A stretch of 64,000 bases of DNA from a virus, in the IMG/VR virus record IMGVR_UViG_2617270923_000003, positions 1 through 64,000 of that record. One strand, 5' to 3'. The position numbers and the translations under genes are program-made. Position 1 is the stretch's first letter. Each line of letters begins with the position of its first letter. Positions 2,203 through 30,598 of this stretch are shown in pieces. A model generated the notes under the pieces. The model made no database searches and was not told the origin of the DNA. It saw nothing but the letters and a program-made list of their open reading frames with translations.

Positions 2203-2907
2203 TCAGAACCCTCCATAAGCAGGGAGCGCCCGTAGGTGTTCGCTGCTGCTGCGCGCTTCCTCGATCTGACGCTCCTCTTCCAGCCGGCGCTGGCGTTCCA
2301 GCTCGGTAAGAACCGCCTTTCGTTCGGCAACCAGGCGCTTGTGCATGATCTCTGCCTTAGCAAGCGCCGTGGTCTTGTTCTTGACCTGCTCCTTGAAACC
2401 CTTGCGGCTGACGTAGAAGCTGCGGCTGGTGCCAGCCAGCGGGTTCGGATTGCGCGGATCGCGCCTGTCGACTTTCATGAGCGAGGCGTAAACCGTGCAG
2501 TCCGGGTGATCTGGATCCTCGAACTTACCCAACAGGTCGCCCTCGAAAACAACAGGCGCCCTAACCGGATTTTCGGTCCATAAGTTGTTGAAGGGGCTTT
2601 CACCAATAGCGATCTCGTTGAGAAAGTAGAACAGGTCGCCCGAGGCTTCATGTGTCCCTCGCGTCTTGGTCGCGGTCATCTTGAGTTCGCGCGAGGGGCT
2701 GCTGCGTCCCAATGCCAGCATGAGCGTTTCCGTCAGCATCGACTTGTTGTAACCGCGGCTGGGTGACGCCATAACGATGCTCAGTTCGCCCGGTCTCCAT
2801 CCCTTAAGGCTTTCTGCAAGGTCCGCCAGGTAGTCAGGGGTCGGAAGCTTTACGTCTTGAGCTTCAAGCTTCAGGCCGTCGAACTCGACAATGTATTGGC
2901 CGCTCAT
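2203..2907 (-). CDS. hypothetical protein (234 aa) ending ...LPAYGGF
   Basis: Long ORF; C-terminal coiled-coil/charged region; member of the aromatic C-tail family. Confidence 0.55.
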   Translation of the reverse strand: MSGQYIVEFDGLKLEAQDVKLPTPDYLADLAESLKGWRPGELSIVMASPSRGYNKSMLTETLMLALGRSSPSRELKMTATKTRGTHEASGDLFYFLNEIAIGESPFNNLWTENPVRAPVVFEGDLLGKFEDPDHPDCTVYASLMKVDRRDPRNPNPLAGTSRSFYVSRKGFKEQVKNKTTALAKAEIMHKRLVAERKAVLTELERQRRLEEERQIEEARSSSEHLRALPAYGGF

Positions 2908-3137
2908 GCTGCATCCTCCCAGCGCGGCTGAATCGCCTCGATCGCTTCCATCGCAATCAGGGTGTGCCAGTCGCCGTCAGGCGCAACCACGCGGATGCCC
3001 AGCACGTTATTGGTGAAGTCGGCTTTGGTGATGACGCCGGTAAAGCTGCGGGTCTTGGTGTAGACACAGACCTCGCGCTTGTCGGGCTTCACAGTCTCGG
3101 CCTGCTCGCGGATAATCTTAACCAGACGGGCACTCAT
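2904..3137 (-). CDS. hypothetical protein (77 aa)
   Basis: ORF with ATGA overlap to its neighbour. Confidence 0.45.
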   Translation of the reverse strand: MSARLVKIIREQAETVKPDKREVCVYTKTRSFTGVITKADFTNNVLGIRVVAPDGDWHTLIAMEAIEAIQPRWEDAA

Positions 3138-4347: not shown

Positions 4348-4551
4348 ATGCTAAGGAATGACTTTGACGCGAACGTAAACGAACTCAAGGCCGCGGTAGT
4401 CGGCGCAATGGAGACGCATTTCAAGGAGCGTCGGTTCACCTTCGACGTAGGGCGCTTTCTCGCGGAGACGCAGGTTGATCTGGACCTGTTTCTACGCGAA
4501 GCATATTTCCTCGGCGCCGAGGTATTTCCGATACAATCACCGCAGCAATAA
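4348..4551 (+). CDS. small hypothetical protein with C-terminal ...FLGAEVFP; paralog of the 5119..5324 gene
   Basis: ATG at 4348 with GGAGAAAACAG RBS; immediately followed by a strong intrinsic terminator. Confidence 0.4.
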   Translation: MLRNDFDANVNELKAAVVGAMETHFKERRFTFDVGRFLAETQVDLDLFLREAYFLGAEVFPIQSPQQ

Positions 4552-4555
4552 AGAA

Positions 4556-4586
4556 AAGGCCCGCTTGTGACGGGCCTTTTTGTTAT
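4556..4586. terminator. Rho-independent terminator, bidirectional (aaggcccgcttgtgacgggccttttt)
   Basis: GC-rich 7-bp stem with a T-tract on the plus strand and an A-tract on the other side. Sits between convergent genes. Confidence 0.65.
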
Positions 4587-4891
4587 TTCTGGAGTTTGTC
4601 GAGATCGCGCTGCAGGTCAGCGGGACTGACCGGTGTGCAGACGTAGGTCCGCGACAGGATCGGTCGACCCGTGGCAGCATCGACAGTCGCCGGCGGCTGG
4701 TCATTCAGCGTCGTAGCTCGAAAGTTGCATTCTTTCTGATCCACTATGCCTTGAACGACAACTTGGGTCTCGGGCGCTTTGCCACCGCCAAGGACCATCA
4801 CCAGAACTACCATCCATGCTGTGTTCATATACATGCCCTGCATTGTTCGTTTAGAAGCGATCTTGGTAACGAACTGGGGCGAAACAGACAA
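4583..4891 (-). CDS. small secreted/membrane protein (hydrophobic N-terminal segment MNTAWMVVLVMVLGGG)
   Basis: ORF with a signal-peptide-like N-terminus; the real start is probably one of the internal Met codons. Confidence 0.35.
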   Translation of the reverse strand: MSVSPQFVTKIASKRTMQGMYMNTAWMVVLVMVLGGGKAPETQVVVQGIVDQKECNFRATTLNDQPPATVDAATGRPILSRTYVCTPVSPADLQRDLDKLQK

Positions 4892-5118
4892 GACATTGCA
4901 ACCAAAAACCTTGCTCTAATATCGGCACCTGAAGGCGACGTAGCTTGACAGCTCCGTAGCGATCCCGGATCTCGCTTCTCGACGTGCTTAAATGTATCTC
5001 ACGACAGCGTGGATAGCGGTAGGCGATTCAAAATTCACAACATCACCGTGCATAAAGTGGTTGACTCTCGGCGCCGAGTGTAGGAATTTTGTCCTACGGA
5101 ACATAACAGGAACGGACG

Positions 5119-13714: not shown

Positions 13715-14506
13715 TTAGCTTGCGGCAGGTGCCGGCACCAGGCTGCGCAGACGCTCGGCAATCTTGCTGTCCGAGCGGAGCGTAAGCGTCTGCCCGGAGC
13801 GATCAGCGATCTTGACCGTAGCGAAGAGGTTCATGATCTGACCTGACTGCGAGCGCGCGGTGCCTTCGCCAAGGCCGGAAGCCTTGTAGGCGCCGACGAC
13901 ATCAGCCGAAGTCATCGAGCCCTTGCTGTCGAGCAGCTTGAATGCCACCATCACGTAGACGGACGGCTCCTTGCCGACGGACAAAGCGGTGAACAGGTTG
14001 TCGAACTTCTCGGCGACCTTTACCTGAGCCGGCAGGAGCTTCATGGTCGTCTCACGGGCGGTCTTGAGGTCTTCGTCCGACATCGTGGACGGGTCGCCCG
14101 AGAGCACGAAGAACTCGTCGGCCACCTTGGAGATATCGCGAGGCGTGCGCGTCACGCCACTGGATGCTGCCTTACGCTCGCCCTTGGCCTTCGGCCGGAC
14201 GGCTGCAGTCGGCGCCGGCAATTCGGTCGTGGTAACGGAAGATGACTTCTGCTCCTCATAGATTTCGTTCTTGGCGAGCGCCAGGTCGAGATCGGCGAGC
14301 TCCTCGCTTTCGAGGACGGTCGGCGCGACCGCGGCTTCTTCCGCTGCTTCGAGTTCGGCTTCGTCTTCCGGCGTTGTCTCGTAGATCACGCCTTCTTCCT
14401 CACCCTCGGACTGAATGTCGAGGTCTGCGAGAACGGCGTCGAGTGCGTCGAGGTCTGCGGTATTCGGCATGGCGTTTTGCTGGATCGTTGCGAGTGCGGT
14501 GCTCAT
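13715..14506 (-). CDS. hypothetical protein with a strongly acidic N-terminal half (263 aa)
   Basis: Long ORF. The Asp/Glu-rich N-terminal segment could be a DNA mimic or scaffold; no family was recognised. Confidence 0.5.
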   Translation of the reverse strand: MSTALATIQQNAMPNTADLDALDAVLADLDIQSEGEEEGVIYETTPEDEAELEAAEEAAVAPTVLESEELADLDLALAKNEIYEEQKSSSVTTTELPAPTAAVRPKAKGERKAASSGVTRTPRDISKVADEFFVLSGDPSTMSDEDLKTARETTMKLLPAQVKVAEKFDNLFTALSVGKEPSVYVMVAFKLLDSKGSMTSADVVGAYKASGLGEGTARSQSGQIMNLFATVKIADRSGQTLTLRSDSKIAERLRSLVPAPAAS

Positions 14507-24427: not shown

Positions 24428-24886
24428 TTACTTGCCCGTCGAGCCGAAGCCGTTTGCGCCGCGGGCCGTGTCGTCGAGGGACTCGGCGACGGTGAACTCG
24501 GCACGAATGACAGGCGCGATCACCATCTGCGCGATACGGTCGCCGGTCTTGATCGCAAAGTCTTCCTTGCCCGTGTTGAGCAGAATTACCTTCACCTCGC
24601 CGCGATAATCGCTGTCGATCGTGCCCGGTGCGTTGACCACAGTAATGCCGTTCTTCGCAGCCAGACCGGAACGCGGGCGAACCTGGGCTTCCGTGCCAGT
24701 GCTCAGTTCGATGGCGATGCCGGTCGGAACGATGGCGCGCTCGCCAGGAGGGATTACCAATTCGCCATCGACGACCGCGTAAAGATCCGCGCCGGCCGCT
24801 TCATTCGAGCCGTAGGTCGGAACCTTGGCCTTGTCGTTCAAAAGCTGGACGCGAACGCCCGTGGTTTCGTAAAGTGATGCACCCAT
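24428..24886 (-). CDS. dut: dUTP diphosphatase (dUTPase)
   Basis: Start [11 protein letters not shown] with AAGGAGAA RBS. Carries the five dUTPase motifs (AAGADL; PTG; [10 protein letters not shown]; RIAQ; C-terminal GFGSTG). Confidence 0.85.
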
Positions 24887-24897
24887 TTGGTTCTCCT

Positions 24898-25089
24898 TTA
24901 TGCAACGCCGAGGGCGGATGCGACAGCCCTGGCTAGATGTTCTTCGCACGCCTTGACCGCAGCTTCTTCTGCGGCCCTGCGAGAGGGGTAGGGACTAGAC
25001 CAGGGCGCACTTTCGTCGCCGGCCGGGTGACGGAAGCACCAGCCGCCCTGGCGCTCTGCCACGTCGAAGCTCATGGTGATGGTGCTCAT
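24898..25089 (-). CDS. hypothetical protein (63 aa)
   Basis: ATGA-coupled to the upstream gene; GAAGGACG RBS. Confidence 0.4.
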
Positions 25090-26210: not shown

Positions 26211-26627
26211 TTAGAACTTTGCGAAATTCTCGGGCTGGTCCGATGCTTCGAGCGGATCGGGTTCGATGAAGACCTTGATCTTCACGCGGCTTGCGGCCTC
26301 GCCGATCGACTTTTCGAGCGCCACCTTGACGCCCTTCTCGGTCGCATCGAGAACCAGTTTCGGATAGTTGGTCCGGCTGCCATGCTTGTCGGCGAGGCGC
26401 TGGGCCAGGTTCTCCAGGAACTGATCGTCCTTGAGGAGCTGGTTGATGCGCTCGTCGGCGCGGGCGCGGACCTGGTAGCTCACGTCCTTCGAGCCACCGA
26501 TACCGTGCTCGTTGGCAAGAATGTTCTGGATCTGACCGGTCAGGAACCACTTGAGCGCGGCCTTGTCGTCCTGATGCAGCTTGTCGAAGAAAGCCTTTCC
26601 GCGCTTTTCGAGTTCGTCCGGAGTCAT
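26211..26627 (-). CDS. hypothetical protein (138 aa) ending ...NFAKF
   Basis: ORF downstream of the promoter cassette at 26638-26665. Confidence 0.5.
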   Translation of the reverse strand: MTPDELEKRGKAFFDKLHQDDKAALKWFLTGQIQNILANEHGIGGSKDVSYQVRARADERINQLLKDDQFLENLAQRLADKHGSRTNYPKLVLDATEKGVKVALEKSIGEAASRVKIKVFIEPDPLEASDQPENFAKF

Positions 26628-26637
26628 ATCTTCCTCT

Positions 26638-26665
26638 TGAGTAAGTGCTTACTTAACTTATAGCG
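26638..26665 (-). promoter_or_regulatory. promoter/operator cassette copy (TGAGTAAgtgcTTACTTAacTTATAGCG)
   Basis: Upstream of the 26211..26627 gene. Confidence 0.5.
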
Positions 26666-26716
26666 TGAACGAATTGGAACTGCGCATTTTGTTCTCGGCG
26701 GCAGTGTTTTTTTATT

Positions 26717-26753
26717 AGTGCTACGTCTTGTAAGACTCGCCAGTCATACCTAT
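26717..26753 (+). promoter_or_regulatory. direct repeat TTGTAAGACTCG x2 (25-bp pitch) in an AT-rich leader upstream of the PadR gene; candidate autoregulatory operator
   Basis: Two exact 12-mers at 26717-26728 and 26742-26753. A T-tract lies upstream. Confidence 0.4.
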
Positions 26754-26799
26754 TGTAAGACTCGTTGGTTCCTATGGTTTACGTTTGATTGGATTGATT

Positions 26800-27096
26800 A
26801 TGTTTGGTGCCACGGACTTGGAAATGGAGATCCTGCGGCTTTTGACTAGCGGACGCCGCCTCTATGGACTTGAGATGGTAAAGGAGTCGGAGAAATTGAA
26901 ACGGGGAACGATCTACGTCTACCTCGGCAGGATGGAAGACAAAGAGTGGATTAAATCGGAAGCCGAGAAGGAAGCTTCGGTTCCGGGACTGCCGCGCAGG
27001 CGCTATTGGATCACTGGTAAGGGCCAGCGGGTCTTCGACCGCGCCAATGAAATGCGGAGGCAGTATGACGCGTTTGGTGAAGGATACGCGGTATGA
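26800..27096 (+). CDS. PadR-family transcriptional regulator
   Basis: Winged-helix PadR signature (LEMEILRLL..G...YGLEM...G.......GT.Y..L.R.E..G.I). AT-rich; plus strand. Confidence 0.7.
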   Translation: MFGATDLEMEILRLLTSGRRLYGLEMVKESEKLKRGTIYVYLGRMEDKEWIKSEAEKEASVPGLPRRRYWITGKGQRVFDRANEMRRQYDAFGEGYAV

Positions 27097-27686
27097 GTGA
27101 CGACAATAAAAAAGAGAGATCATGTTACGATGTCATTTTTCACCGCGAGGGAATTCCTTCCTACATTCAGGTGAAAACCTACGGAAAAGGCACAAAGAAA
27201 ATTAGCCCTGCGAACGAGTGGAATCTCCAAACTCAAGAGCATTTTCTTGCGATCACGCGGGCTATTCGAGAGACTCATGTTAATCAAGTCAACATGTTAG
27301 TCTCGTTTGAGGACAATCAGGCCAAATCCAAGGCCGTATACATCGAGACCGAGCTTCTCCAAGCTGAAAAAATATTGGACAGTTGGAAGATTGAACCAGA
27401 AGTGCCCTTGGCGGCACCCGTCATCGAACGGCCACCTGGGCACCGCGTCATAGTGATACTTCAGACGGTTCTGCCAAAATCCGTCTTCGAACGGGTGTAT
27501 GGCCAGATGGTAGCCGATTCGCGCGAAGAGTATTACGAAGCCCTTCAGCAAGGCGACTGCGAGGAGGCGAAAAAGATCAAGTGGCAACTCAATTACCACC
27601 TGATCATGTCCGTTGTGGAATACTTTGCGAGCCTGCCGGCCCACTTGCTGACAAAACCTTTGAAGATGTTCGACAAAGGCGAATAA
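27093..27686 (+). CDS. hypothetical protein (197 aa) co-transcribed with PadR; AT-rich
   Basis: ATGA-coupled to padR; followed by an intrinsic terminator. No family was recognised. Confidence 0.55.
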   Translation: MSDDNKKERSCYDVIFHREGIPSYIQVKTYGKGTKKISPANEWNLQTQEHFLAITRAIRETHVNQVNMLVSFEDNQAKSKAVYIETELLQAEKILDSWKIEPEVPLAAPVIERPPGHRVIVILQTVLPKSVFERVYGQMVADSREEYYEALQQGDCEEAKKIKWQLNYHLIMSVVEYFASLPAHLLTKPLKMFDKGE

Positions 27687-27711
27687 GGTGGGGCCGAAGC
27701 CCCACCTTTCT
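27685..27711. terminator. Rho-independent terminator, bidirectional (ggtggggccgaagccccacctttct)
   Basis: 8-bp GC stem with T-tract; sits between convergent genes. Confidence 0.65.
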
Positions 27712-27928
27712 AAAATTCAAGATATTCGACAAGCTGGTCATACCCACCAATAAGCACCCCATCGTGGAAGACCTGCGGAAAGGTCGTGTAACCGGCGTCC
27801 TTAAACCGCTGGACCTTCTCCGGCGTGTCGTGGTCGGTTACGGTGAAGTGCTCCTTGTTGCTCTTGAGAAGAGCCTTCGCGCGGACGCAGTAGTTGCAGC
27901 CCGGCCTCGTCATGATGTGATATGCCAT
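27710..27928 (-). CDS. nrdH: NrdH-like glutaredoxin
   Basis: 72 aa with a CNYC redox motif near the N-terminus; thioredoxin-fold length; downstream of nrdA. Confidence 0.75.
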   Translation of the reverse strand: MAYHIMTRPGCNYCVRAKALLKSNKEHFTVTDHDTPEKVQRFKDAGYTTFPQVFHDGVLIGGYDQLVEYLEF

Positions 27929-27929
27929 C

Positions 27930-29612
27930 TTACGCCTCGCACGCTACGCACGAAGCGTTGGCACGGGCCAGCTCCTGTGCCTTGTTCATTCCCTTGCGGT
28001 AGTAGAGAGACTTTGAGCCGCCCTTCCATGCCGCGACGATGATGTCGATGTCGTCCTTCATGGTGGCTTCCGGCGGAAGCTGAACGTTGAAGGAGATGCC
28101 CTGGTCGACGAACGGCGTGCGGTCATTGTTCTGACGCACGAGCTCCATCTGGTCGATATCGACCCACGGCTTGTAGGTGTCCTTCTGGCGCTGGGTCAGG
28201 AAGTCCAGATGCTCGACACGGCCGCCTGCAGCCAGAATGGACTGCCAGACCGAGGTCGTGTTCATGCCCAGCCGGTCGAGCAGCTTGACGAACTGCGGAT
28301 TGTAGTTGGTGAACACACCCTTCGCGTTGTCGTTTTCGAAGACGACAGCTTCCCACGGCTCAATCGACTGCGAGACCTGGCCGCAGATGATCGAGGACGA
28401 GGTAGTCGGGGCGATCGCGTTGACCGTTAGGTTGCGATAACCAGTGCCCTTGAGACCTTCAGGCTCGCCCAGGATGATCGCCAGGTCGCGGGATGCGGCG
28501 TGGGACTCGTCATGGAGATACTTGTGGATCTCGATGTTGAGGTCGCGGGCTTCCTGCGTCTCGATCGGGATTTCACGCGACTGCAGGTAGGAGTGCCAGC
28601 CGAGCGTTCCGAGACCAAGCGCGCGCCAGCGAACGGCAAAGCGATGGGCGTCGGCGAGCAGCCGCTTTCCTTCGGTCTTGCGGATGTATTCCGACATGAC
28701 CGCGTCCAGGAAGAAGATCATCTCCTTGACGAAGGTCGTGCCCTTCCATTCCTCGTAGTAGAGGACGTTGACCGAGGACAGGTCGCAGACGAAGCTTTCG
28801 TCCGGCCCGGACGGCAGCATGATCTCGGTGCAGAGGTTCGAAGCGTAGATCAGCAGACCGAGCCGCTTGAGGACTTCCGGCCGGGCATTGTTGGCGTTGT
28901 CGCGGAACAGGATATAGGGGAAGCCGGTCTCGCGCCGCTTGTTGCGGATCTTCGCCATCATCCGGCGCTTCGGACCACCCTTCGGCTCCGCAAGCATTTC
29001 ATTCATCCAGTCGTCGCCAATGGTGACGCCGAAGGACAGATGCTGGATCGGATGATGAACGCCTTCGGTCGTGGAACGCATCTGCATCCAGCGATCGGCG
29101 TCCTGGTGCTCGATCGGCAGCCAGATGGCAGCATTACCGCGCCGGGTGTTGCCCTGCGAAACGACAGTCACCTGCTCCTGTGTCAGGCGGGCGAAATGGA
29201 CCGGGCCTTCGGACGTGCCACCGCCCGAGATAGGCGACCCGAACGGGCGCAGCGCGCCCATATAGAGCGAGGTGCCGGCACCTTCCTTAGTCATCGCACC
29301 GATTTCGGCGTTCTTGAACAGGATGGAGTCCATGTCGTCGTCAACGAAGGAACCGTTGCACGAGATGGGCAGACCGCGGTTGGTGCCGAAGTTCGACCAG
29401 ATCGGCGAGGCGGGCGATACCCAGCCGCGCTTCATGCCGTAGCGAACCATCGGCAATTCCATGCCGAGCTCCTTCTCGGCAGCATCAACAAGCGCGTTCG
29501 CACGCTTGATGGCCTCATCCTTGAGGTCTTCCTTCGCAATGCCTTCCCGCAGATATCCGCGAGAGAGGGTCTTCAACGAGATATCGTTGAAATGTTCCCA
29601 ATCAGGGCGCAT
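27930..29612 (-). CDS. nrdA: ribonucleotide reductase class I large subunit (no ATP-cone)
   Basis: 560 aa with the active-site SNLCTEI motif. Confidence 0.85.
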   Translation of the reverse strand: MRPDWEHFNDISLKTLSRGYLREGIAKEDLKDEAIKRANALVDAAEKELGMELPMVRYGMKRGWVSPASPIWSNFGTNRGLPISCNGSFVDDDMDSILFKNAEIGAMTKEGAGTSLYMGALRPFGSPISGGGTSEGPVHFARLTQEQVTVVSQGNTRRGNAAIWLPIEHQDADRWMQMRSTTEGVHHPIQHLSFGVTIGDDWMNEMLAEPKGGPKRRMMAKIRNKRRETGFPYILFRDNANNARPEVLKRLGLLIYASNLCTEIMLPSGPDESFVCDLSSVNVLYYEEWKGTTFVKEMIFFLDAVMSEYIRKTEGKRLLADAHRFAVRWRALGLGTLGWHSYLQSREIPIETQEARDLNIEIHKYLHDESHAASRDLAIILGEPEGLKGTGYRNLTVNAIAPTTSSSIICGQVSQSIEPWEAVVFENDNAKGVFTNYNPQFVKLLDRLGMNTTSVWQSILAAGGRVEHLDFLTQRQKDTYKPWVDIDQMELVRQNNDRTPFVDQGISFNVQLPPEATMKDDIDIIVAAWKGGSKSLYYRKGMNKAQELARANASCVACEA

Positions 29613-29629
29613 TCACGTTTCCTTTCGAT

Positions 29630-30598
29630 TTAGAAATTGTCGTCGTCGGCCTGATCCGCCTTCTGGTAGGCGGTCGGCTCGGAGTGGAAAAAGTCGACCT
29701 TGGCGGGCGCGAGCAGCCCTTCGGTCATCCAGAAGGTCTCGGCGCGCTCAGCCTCGGAGACCTCGAACATCGGCGTGTAGCCAATGCCTTCGAGCGACTC
29801 GTTGAGGCGCTGAGCGACGTAGGTCTTAAGGATCGAGGCGTTGAGCTTGGGCTGGTCGTAGTCGCCGAGCATCCAGTCGATCAGAGCGGCTTCAGCCTTG
29901 TAGGCTTCCTGGCACTCTTCCTTGATGCGGGCTTCCAGCTCGGCGTCGAACAGGTCCGGATATTCCACGCGCAGCGTATTGATGATCTTCATGCCGGCCT
30001 GGGCATGGAGCATCTCCTCGTTGCGGGTGTATTTCACCTGCTGGGCGGCGTCCTTGAAGCGGTTCTCGAAGCGGTTGAACCAGAGGACGATGTAGAACTG
30101 CGAGAAAAGGCTCACATTCTCCACGAACAGCGTGAACAGGATCAGGCTGTAGATGAACTGCTTCTTGTCGTCGTTGGCGAATGCCTTGTCCTTGTGCTTG
30201 GACAGGTAGCCGACACGGCCGGCGATTGCCGGCACGTTCATGTTTTCCTTAAACACGCCCTGCAGACCGAGCTTCTTGAGGAGCTTCTCATAGGCGTTAT
30301 TATGGATGACCTCGATGTAGCCCATCGTGATCCCGAGATCGGAGATAGAAGGATGAGGCAGAATGCGACCGAGTAGCGGCCAGAATTCCTTCACCTGAAT
30401 TTCGATCTGGGCGATCGCAGCGAGGCAGCGCTTGATGATTTCGCGCTCCTGGTCGGTCAGGCGGAGCTCGTAGTCGGTCACATCGCTGTCGAAGGTGAAC
30501 TTCTTGGCGGTCCAGAAGCCGTCCTGCATGGCTTCGATGAAGTCCTGAGCCCAAGGATAGAGGTCGGGGAGACGTTCGACCTGGCGTTCGAAAAGCAT
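29630..30598 (-). CDS. nrdB: ribonucleotide reductase class I small subunit
   Basis: 322 aa with the di-iron/tyrosyl radical helices (...EE..H...) and the C-terminal acidic-aromatic tail (DDDNF). Confidence 0.85.
   Translation of the reverse strand: MLFERQVERLPDLYPWAQDFIEAMQDGFWTAKKFTFDSDVTDYELRLTDQEREIIKRCLAAIAQIEIQVKEFWPLLGRILPHPSISDLGITMGYIEVIHNNAYEKLLKKLGLQGVFKENMNVPAIAGRVGYLSKHKDKAFANDDKKQFIYSLILFTLFVENVSLFSQFYIVLWFNRFENRFKDAAQQVKYTRNEEMLHAQAGMKIINTLRVEYPDLFDAELEARIKEECQEAYKAEAALIDWMLGDYDQPKLNASILKTYVAQRLNESLEGIGYTPMFEVSEAERAETFWMTEGLLAPAKVDFFHSEPTAYQKADQADDDNF

Follow-up and report, generated by a model that had tools for sequence, protein, structure and literature searches.

What does a short pair of genes that runs against its neighbours, within a viral nucleotide-metabolism array, do for the element that carries it? 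The question arises at one locus of the virus record IMGVR_UViG_2617270923_000003 (IMG/VR), of which we analysed positions 1 to 64,000; this whole stretch of 64,000 nucleotides is called the window below. Inside a minus-strand array of nucleotide-metabolism genes, the window carries a plus-strand transcription unit (26718-27708) of about 1 kb with two genes, the first for a PadR-family repressor and the second for a protein of 197 amino acids (aa). A sequence-only reading of the window had described the pair as an AT-rich plus-strand moron that runs against its surroundings and has a direct-repeat operator and its own terminator, and the elements of that description were found in or close to the places it assigned them. 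Our analysis suggests that the pair, called the cassette in the following, is probably an autorepressed dyad of PadR and a cognate partner protein, with a logic like that of the HAAS-PadR systems. The cassette is organized as follows.

about 26710-27708, plus strand: two-gene cassette including its signals, left end set where DNA similarity to an R. skierniewicense island begins
26800-27096, plus strand: PadR-family winged-helix repressor, 98 aa, short PadR type (Pfam PF03551)
27093-27416, plus strand: N-terminal part of the partner protein (residues 1-108), variable, with homologues limited to P0002-P0005 and P0011
27417-27686, plus strand: partner protein, conserved C-terminal domain, residues 109-197 and stop codon, defined by the profile family

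A PadR repressor and its proposed cognate partner

The cassette regulator is predicted to be an ordinary PadR protein, the identity that the earlier reading had also given to the first gene. It matches Pfam PF03551 above the curated cutoff (E 2.1e-9; 37.7 bits, cutoff 27) over profile positions 1-74 of 75. The closest solved chains are 5dym (1.5e-4) and 3hhh, and the best NCBIfam match is TIGR03433 padR_acidobact (1.4e-5). The finder of open reading frames (ORFs) placed the start at TTG 26785; the ATG at 26800 is kept in all homologues and gives the length of 98 aa. Members of the subfamily share the motif YGLEMV...LKRGTIYV.L.R(M/L)E(E/D)K.(W/F)..S...G(L/M)PRR.Y. The end of padR (27096) and the start of the 197-aa ORF (27093) overlap as ATGA, and the two plus-strand ORFs stand among minus-strand genes, both as described before. 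The claimed drop in GC content was likewise measurable, with 0.492 in the unit against 0.590 in 6 kb of flanks; along the sequence the GC profile falls from about 0.60 to 0.43-0.55 over 26500-27700.

For the 197-aa protein and its relatives, no family match was obtained in Pfam, PHROGs, NCBIfam or PADLOC. A word-indexed search of 5.8 billion proteins returned nine relatives, one of which, encoded on a 120,504-bp contig of Rhizobium sp. AN5, is 100% identical. Their alignment separates 108 variable N-terminal residues from 89 conserved C-terminal ones. A profile built from the C-terminal residues matched 252 of 1.84 billion representative proteins (E 0.001 or better), and in all 150 matches listed (56-311 aa) the domain is C-terminal.

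We inspected the surroundings of this domain in twelve distinct contexts (the window, L010, L004-6, L007-9, L011, L012/13, L014, L015, L017, L018, L022, L026 and L035-37). A PadR of the same subfamily lies directly upstream of the partner gene in all twelve, usually with overlapping stop and start codons. This includes L014, where the source annotation had not called the PadR ORF; it is present and overlaps the partner by 4 bp. Because PadR precedes it in every context examined, we read the second protein as the cognate partner of PadR and not as its cargo. The sequence-only reading had called it a cargo without recognisable family: the lack of a curated match holds, and the notion of an arbitrary cargo gives way to a C-terminal domain family that is coupled to one PadR subfamily.

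The replicons that carry the cassette are diverse and comprise phage-plasmids, an island resembling an integrative and conjugative element, a conjugative plasmid, prophage-like elements and chromosomes. At the same spot and in the same orientation as in the window, it is found in a 119-kb contig of another assembly (L010), in P. qamdonense p5 and in a plasmid of Shinella (S. zoogloeoides). The R. skierniewicense island (L007) carries it among genes for a resolvase, UmuDC, ArdC-N and ParB-N; the 50-kb conjugative plasmid pAt2 of A. tumefaciens (L022) carries it as well. Prophage-like elements (L035-L037) have a cassette with the N-terminal type of the window, and a 105-kb IMG/VR contig (L026) has one beside a 1669-aa ORF that we read by eye as a methylase-helicase fusion. 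Further cassettes occupy ordinary chromosomal sites of distant bacteria. On the chromosome of Agrobacterium sp. CNPSo 3708 (JBQEPP010000002.1, L004 7264-9119), a phage-plasmid piece of about 1.9 kb sits next to gltB and consists of a remnant of a 137-aa gene, PadR, the partner, glutaredoxin and the start of the ribonucleotide reductase (RNR) region, 74-89% identical to L010. In pAt2, at L022 3156-4172, a divergent gene for a TIR-domain protein adjoins the cassette and a gene with an LPD7 domain lies on its other side.

The GC content of the cassette is below that of its surroundings in 11 of the 12 contexts. A search for related loci by close alignment gave none in IMG/VR and R. skierniewicense as the sole find among species representatives. 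We place the mobile unit at about 26710-27708 because similarity to the R. skierniewicense island starts at 26710, just before the first predicted operator box. These settings show a self-contained mobile unit that moves between phage-plasmids, conjugative plasmids, islands and chromosomes.

A conserved C-terminal domain behind interchangeable N-terminal parts

The C-terminal domain has the signature PPG...PK.xFERVYGQMVADSREEYYEAL.QG...A in the window, and residues P115, G116, K129, F/Y132, E/D133, Q138, D142, R144, E146, Y147, A150, L151, G154 and A159 (window numbering) are conserved family-wide. An AlphaFold2 model of the domain (86 sequences, 91-aa construct) reached a predicted local distance difference test score (pLDDT) of 86, with helices at 11-20, 23-47 and 50-88; the last helix spans about 39 residues and confidence drops toward its tail. 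The N-terminal part was modelled with pLDDT below 50, and the full-length model with pLDDT 50. A PDB sequence search with the family profile gave chance matches only (E at least 2), and a Foldseek search of the full-length model against the PDB returned nothing at E 0.001 or better. A housekeeping fold for the 197-aa protein, which the sequence-only reading had named as evidence that would speak against its view, was not found in these sequence and structure searches. When both cassette proteins were compared with PADLOC-DB 2.0, the matches were at chance level only: they concerned CARF and PtuB models, lay in unrelated regions and had E values of at least 0.001. We file the C-terminal domain as a putative new family, described in no library or paper within the literature searched.

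Typical family members are 120-230 aa long and have at most one hydrophobic helix. The tail is moderately hydrophobic; its best 19-residue Kyte-Doolittle value has a family median of 1.56 and is at least 1.6 in 68 of 155 members; in the window protein it is 1.12. Membrane anchoring by the partner tail is possible.

The N-terminal parts are extremely diverse: 147 sequences fall into 135 blastp similarity clusters. Some contain recognisable DNA-binding domains, namely GcrA (P0146, P0073), a DnaA domain IV-like region (P0026, P0084), RecD2 HHH (P0079) and HTH_23 (two members); others have transmembrane-like segments. At the DNA level, similarity of the window to L010, L004 and L007 ends with the PadR stop codon and is regained where the C-terminal domain starts (27424-27457). 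Because these breaks coincide with the domain border, the N-terminal module appears to be exchanged as a block. The idea that N-terminal parts act as decoys of host proteins was dropped: the stretches resembling ribosomal protein S19 (P0067, 43 residues) and a sugar-transferase (P0051, 26 residues) are both short and terminal, and could be artefacts of gene calling or assembly. The GcrA, DnaA domain IV-like and RecD2 HHH assignments are firm.

This variability bears on the model of the sequence-only reading, in which PadR represses an independent superinfection-exclusion or anti-defence cargo that it does not contact directly. Hypervariable N-termini are typical of arms-race proteins, and the cassette is accessory and built like a phage moron, with deviant GC content, opposite orientation, its own signals, a patchy presence in close relatives and a position in a plasticity spot. 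It also occurs in regions of conjugative elements that are rich in anti-restriction or establishment genes (ArdC-N, ParB-N, LPD7 and the 1669-aa ORF), with the TIR neighbour in pAt2. The cassette differs from a phage moron in not being phage-specific, as the conjugative plasmids, islands and chromosomes that carry it illustrate. Against the independent cargo, the conserved part of the protein is the part that is always linked to PadR, whereas the presumably functional N-terminus is freely swapped; co-inheritance of a constant domain with the repressor in twelve contexts would be needless for an independent cargo, and neither PADLOC nor PHROGs offers a match. We regard an independent cargo as decidedly unlikely.

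A family-wide predicted operator upstream of PadR

In the proposed dyad, autorepression would act through the DNA upstream of the two genes. The following signals were assigned there and at the end of the cassette.

26718-26736, plus strand: predicted PadR box 1, GTGCTACG-TCT-TGTAAGAC; left arm 5/8 and right arm 8/8 against the consensus
26743-26761, plus strand: predicted PadR box 2, GTCATACC-TAT-TGTAAGAC; left arm 6/8 and right arm 8/8 against the consensus
26728-26756, plus strand: possible sigma-70-type promoter TTGTAA-N17-TATTGT, inferred from sequence, overlapping both boxes
27685-27708, no strand assigned: GC-rich 10-bp hairpin AAGGTGGGGC/GCCCCACCTT, abutting the partner stop codon and the 3' end of the minus-strand glutaredoxin gene

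The sequence-only reading had proposed a direct-repeat operator. The two exact 12-mers on which it relied (TTGTAAGACTCG) are indeed present at 26728-26739 and 26753-26764, 25 bp apart; what had been taken for direct repeats are the right halves of two palindromic boxes, the first copy being the right arm of box 1. Repeat pairs of this type within 60 bp occur at 4 loci in 64 kb, compared to 0.4 expected under a first-order Markov model, and the pair by itself is only mildly unusual. We consider the repeats significant because they are conserved upstream of homologous cassettes elsewhere, not because of their rarity. Other exact direct repeats of at least 12 nt, 30-39 bp apart, lie at 14417/14447, 35079/35118 and 55962/56000 of the window.

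Comparison of the 140 nt upstream of PadR in 11 cassettes yielded the predicted palindromic box consensus GTCTTACA-N3-TGTAAGAC, and the palindrome is conserved upstream of PadR in 11 of the 12 cassettes examined. It is perfect or near-perfect in L012, L014, L015, L017, L018 and L026, with the inverted repeats AGTCTTACA-ATC-TGTAAGACT in L012, CTTACA-ACT-TGTAAG in L014 and GAGTCTTACA-TCG-TGTAAGACTC in L015. Single perfect palindromes were seen in L012, L015 and L026, and two boxes each in L017 and L018. The close Rhizobiaceae family, including the window, has two tandem boxes, each with an intact right arm TGTAAGAC and a degenerate left arm; the distance between the box centres is 25 bp in the window and in L022 (pAt2), and 23 bp in the three loci L010, L004 and L007.

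Beyond the two boxes, the half-site TGTAAGAC has no copy in the 64-kb window, and in the fetched loci, flanks included, the core palindrome occurs nowhere but in the cassette's own promoter. Because half-site and palindrome are confined in this way, autoregulation is the only visible PadR target. A scan of IMG/VR for the box returned 12 exact matches, of which one (L026) belongs to a cassette; the others are probably chance matches, as a rough estimate predicts about a dozen. A TTGACT or TTGAAA hexamer, which we tentatively assign as a promoter element, precedes the box's TAAGAC by 17 nt in L012 and L015.

The hairpin at the other end of the cassette had been called a strong bidirectional terminator. 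It folds well on both strands (-19.8 kcal/mol on the plus and -20.9 kcal/mol on the minus strand; z -3.4 and -3.6). "Strong" is overstated: the T-tracts that follow are weak (TTTCT on the plus strand, TTATTC on the minus strand) and a consensus terminator scan did not call the hairpin at 27685-27708. The homologous hairpin TGGGGCC-NNA-GCCCCA also stands directly 3' of the partner stop codon in L010 and L004 and in the island of R. skierniewicense (L007), and it is best described as a terminator-like element of the cassette that travels with it. Two minus-strand terminator-like sites inside the partner gene (27575-27605 and 27191-27212) compare with 1.9 in shuffled sequences and are probably due to chance.

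Comparison with HAAS-PadR dyads and a proposed mechanism

Canonical PadR autorepressors (e.g., 5dym, 3hhh) share with the cassette regulator the winged-helix fold and a palindromic operator that overlaps the protein's own predicted promoter. In contrast to these, the cassette box GTCTTACA-N3-TGTAAGAC is specific to the subfamily and occurs as tandem boxes with degenerate left arms, and no efflux or detoxification gene adjoins it; the partner is the sole co-transcribed gene. A closer likeness is found in the HAAS-PadR dyad, in which a three-helix domain, fused to sensor or membrane domains, is invariably encoded beside a standalone PadR-like winged helix-turn-helix protein (PMC11237479). HAAS is proposed to pass a signal to PadR and thereby change its DNA binding (PMC11237479).

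In common with such dyads, the cassette has a standalone short PadR gene that is always adjacent to a partner with a small three-helix domain and variable modules, and the core of its C-terminal domain was modelled as three consecutive alpha-helices. Acidobacterial-type PadRs pair with permeases that bear a HAAS-like prefix, and the best NCBIfam match of the cassette PadR is of the acidobacterial type. A natural fusion of PadR with a canonical HAAS domain (P0165, 105 aa; PF03551 + PF22564) was also noted, which is consistent with direct PadR-HAAS contact in canonical systems.

We consider it probable that the cassette is an autorepressed PadR-partner dyad with HAAS-PadR-like logic. PadR dimers would bind the two boxes over the cassette promoter and repress the operon, and translational coupling through ATGA would supply PadR and partner in fixed proportion. 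The C-terminal domain of the partner would bind PadR and alter its hold on DNA, as an anti-repressor or a co-repressor; in the anti-repressor detail we place less confidence than in the dyad as a whole. The input would be whatever the interchangeable N-terminal part recognises, and a membrane location of the complex, or its oligomerisation, might be brought about by the hydrophobic last helix. Expression would come from a host-type promoter while the element is carried as a plasmid. Competition with other mobile elements, addiction and sensing are options for the pay-off.

Several observations weigh against this proposal. Both PadR-DNA binding and PadR-partner contact are what we infer, and the candidate promoter is weakly predicted, scoring 8/12 where the scan required 9/12. 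With PadR acting on itself alone, the system would have no visible output gene, and the effector would have to be the partner itself or a target in the host. The comparison with HAAS itself was largely negative: when 86 C-terminal domains were searched against Pfam HAAS (PF22564), DUF1700, DUF1129 and DUF1048 and against NCBIfam, no HAAS-type match appeared at E up to 10. An hhalign comparison with ten PF22564 proteins was not significant (P 0.006-0.06, probability below 7%); this set of ten close relatives is narrow (effective number of sequences, Neff, 1.9) and leaves room for a remote relationship. In addition, the cassette domain is C-terminal in the 150 listed members, whereas HAAS usually precedes the transmembrane or sensor domains of its protein.

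The domains differ in other respects as well. The cassette motif reads PPG...PK.xFERxF.Q.IAD.REEY.EAL..G....A.WI., and the cassette partner has at most one hydrophobic helix instead of multi-pass membrane domains. The sole NCBIfam family matched more than once was perm_prefix_2 (2 of 86 C-terminal domains, best E 0.0054), a result that loses significance once multiple testing is considered. The best local hhalign alignment pairs LP...AD.REEY.EAL..G of the cassette with LP...LQDYEDHF..GLEEG of HAAS; at the column of the HAAS GxP kink in helix 3, the close subfamily has (A/G)-L-P and the window S-L-P, with proline in 21% family-wide. The best reading, in our view, is that the cassette would work like a HAAS-PadR dyad while its partner domain is not demonstrably HAAS.

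The carrier element and its insertion site

The region matches the Rhizobium phages B1VFA, V1VFA-S and RHph_X66 and the RHEph10 group with 75-86% nucleotide identity, and it also matches circular plasmids of 115-120 kb: pLM21S1, R. beringeri pRlX6, P. qamdonense p5 and S. zoogloeoides unnamed3. In the literature, pLM21S1 and RHEph10 are classed as plasmid-like prophages that have genes for RepC-type replication and for partition but lack an integrase (PMC4447125; PMC7969092). The window is most likely part of a Rhizobium phage-plasmid of about 120 kb that was sequenced along with its host. Because the group of the carrier has been described in these terms, expression of the cassette during carriage is plausible. 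The neighbourhood of the insertion and the corresponding sites of relatives comprise the following features.

24428-24949, minus strand: dUTPase, an array gene near the cassette
26211-26627, minus strand: conserved 138-aa gene, left neighbour of the cassette; a ThyX-like gene is also part of the array
26690-26716, no strand assigned: left junction, degenerate remnant TGTTCTCGGCGGCAGTGTTTTTTTATTAG of the phage intergenic hairpin and T-run, from alignment with B1VFA and V1VFA-S
27710-27928, minus strand: glutaredoxin, right neighbour of the cassette
27930-30598, minus strand: RNR alpha and beta subunits, beyond glutaredoxin
RHph_X66 (L002) 4460-4960, plus strand: 166-aa ORF with signal-peptide-like N-terminus, at the cassette's spot
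pRlX6 (L020) 2645-3016, plus strand: 123-aa ORF, at the cassette's spot
RHEph10 (L021) 2821-2892: tRNA-Cys (with small ORFs), at the cassette's spot

In the closest relatives B1VFA, V1VFA-S and pLM21S1 the cassette has no counterpart. There, a 136-aa homologue of the left neighbour is followed by about 92 bp and then by glutaredoxin, with one hairpin in between; homology of the window to this empty site ends at about 26686 and resumes at the glutaredoxin end. The presence/absence comparison proposed by the sequence-only reading thus came out as it had expected for an accessory unit: the cassette is not core, being missing from these three elements and replaced by other genes in RHph_X66 and pRlX6. 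The interval between thyX and glutaredoxin is a plasticity zone of the phage-plasmid group.

Of the relatives of the window, 6 were recovered as resident plasmids or as contigs of bacterial assemblies, and 4 of these have the cassette, compared to 0 of 9 whose genomes came from virions (Fisher p = 0.011), a count from few samples that are phylogenetically non-independent. This association would fit a reading in which the partner acts during carriage as a modular sensor in conflicts between mobile elements. Its constant domain would be a PadR-binding stalk, and the N-terminal modules, swapped by recombination at the domain border and in some cases DNA-binding domains taken from host regulators, would each sense another invader or host cue and either switch PadR or act at the membrane. 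We consider this specific role rather unlikely.

The same count is also in line with an addiction or abortive-infection module akin to toxin-antitoxin systems, in which the partner is a membrane-active toxin and PadR its autorepressing antidote or brake, such that loss of the phage-plasmid, or a loss of PadR triggered by infection, would free the toxin. As in type II systems, two small, co-directional and overlapping genes begin with a DNA-binding autoregulator, and their distribution is patchy over low-copy plasmids, phage-plasmids, integrative elements and chromosomes. The hydrophobic C-terminal segment of the family could be that of a membrane toxin, with the median of 1.56 and 68 of 155 members at or above 1.6; yet the tail of the window protein is weakly hydrophobic (1.12) and contains E and H residues. 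No toxin, antitoxin or defence model was matched and no toxin fold is recognisable. Toxins are normally conserved over their full length, whereas more than half of the partner is hypervariable, and the DNA-binding N-terminal parts of some members (GcrA, DnaA domain IV-like, RecD2 HHH) fit a regulator better. To our knowledge, PadR is not a usual antitoxin fold. A toxin-antitoxin-like module is an unlikely explanation.

Across the window, a 16-bp palindrome AAGTAAG-NN-CTTACTT recurs with 39 strand-matches at no more than 3 mismatches, against 0.4 expected, and about 22 sites were assigned.

1431, 3476, 7408, 10165, 13605, 16441, 17179 and 26640: AAGTAAG-NN-CTTACTT, examples of the sites
30661, 32085, 36544, 41200, 48662, 59511 and 61240: AAGTAAG-NN-CTTACTT, further sites

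The copy at 26640 lies 13 nt upstream of the start of the 138-aa gene, after TATAAG, and is kept in B1VFA, V1VFA-S and L010. The half-site resembles that of PadR, in everted order. The palindrome is probably a promoter or global-operator motif of the phage-plasmid's own.

If PadR and its partner helped to silence lytic genes, the cassette would be part of a switch for lysogeny or plasmid maintenance; its carriers would be recovered as resident plasmids, and elements without it as phages that form plaques. The 4 of 6 against 0 of 9 distribution (Fisher p = 0.011) points in this direction, as does the replication and partition equipment of a group without integrase (RepC-like; PMC4447125). The samples are, however, the few and non-independent ones noted above, and the resident plasmids pLM21S1 and pRlX6 lack the cassette. 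Nor does the PadR half-site recur in the 64-kb window, where the phage-wide palindrome AAGTAAG-NN-CTTACTT is the better candidate for a global operator. Conjugative plasmids, islands and chromosomal sites also carry the cassette without a phage. A role in such a switch is highly improbable, and the autorepressed PadR-partner dyad is the reading we prefer.

Implications

In the libraries and literature searched, no description was found of the strict coupling between PadR and partner, of an operator kept throughout the family or of N-terminal modules exchanged as blocks. Should the cassette prove to be no more than an autoregulated stability module, it would count as an ordinary pair of accessory genes whose annotation has been corrected. 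If the modular-sensor reading is true, it would be a new, very small and diversifying immunity or exclusion system of plasmids and phage-plasmids.

Partner control of PadR-type repressors is an idea so far proposed mainly from comparative genomics, and one operator, two small proteins and natural domain swaps make a cheap system in which to study it. The family is clearly recognisable by its signature, has a defined operator sequence and is extremely modular. A very small portable cassette, with a member of this uncurated family as its second component, is common to phage-plasmids and conjugative elements of the Rhizobiaceae, and if the N-terminal parts are recognition modules, it would represent a new minimal architecture for conflict between elements or for reading the state of the host.

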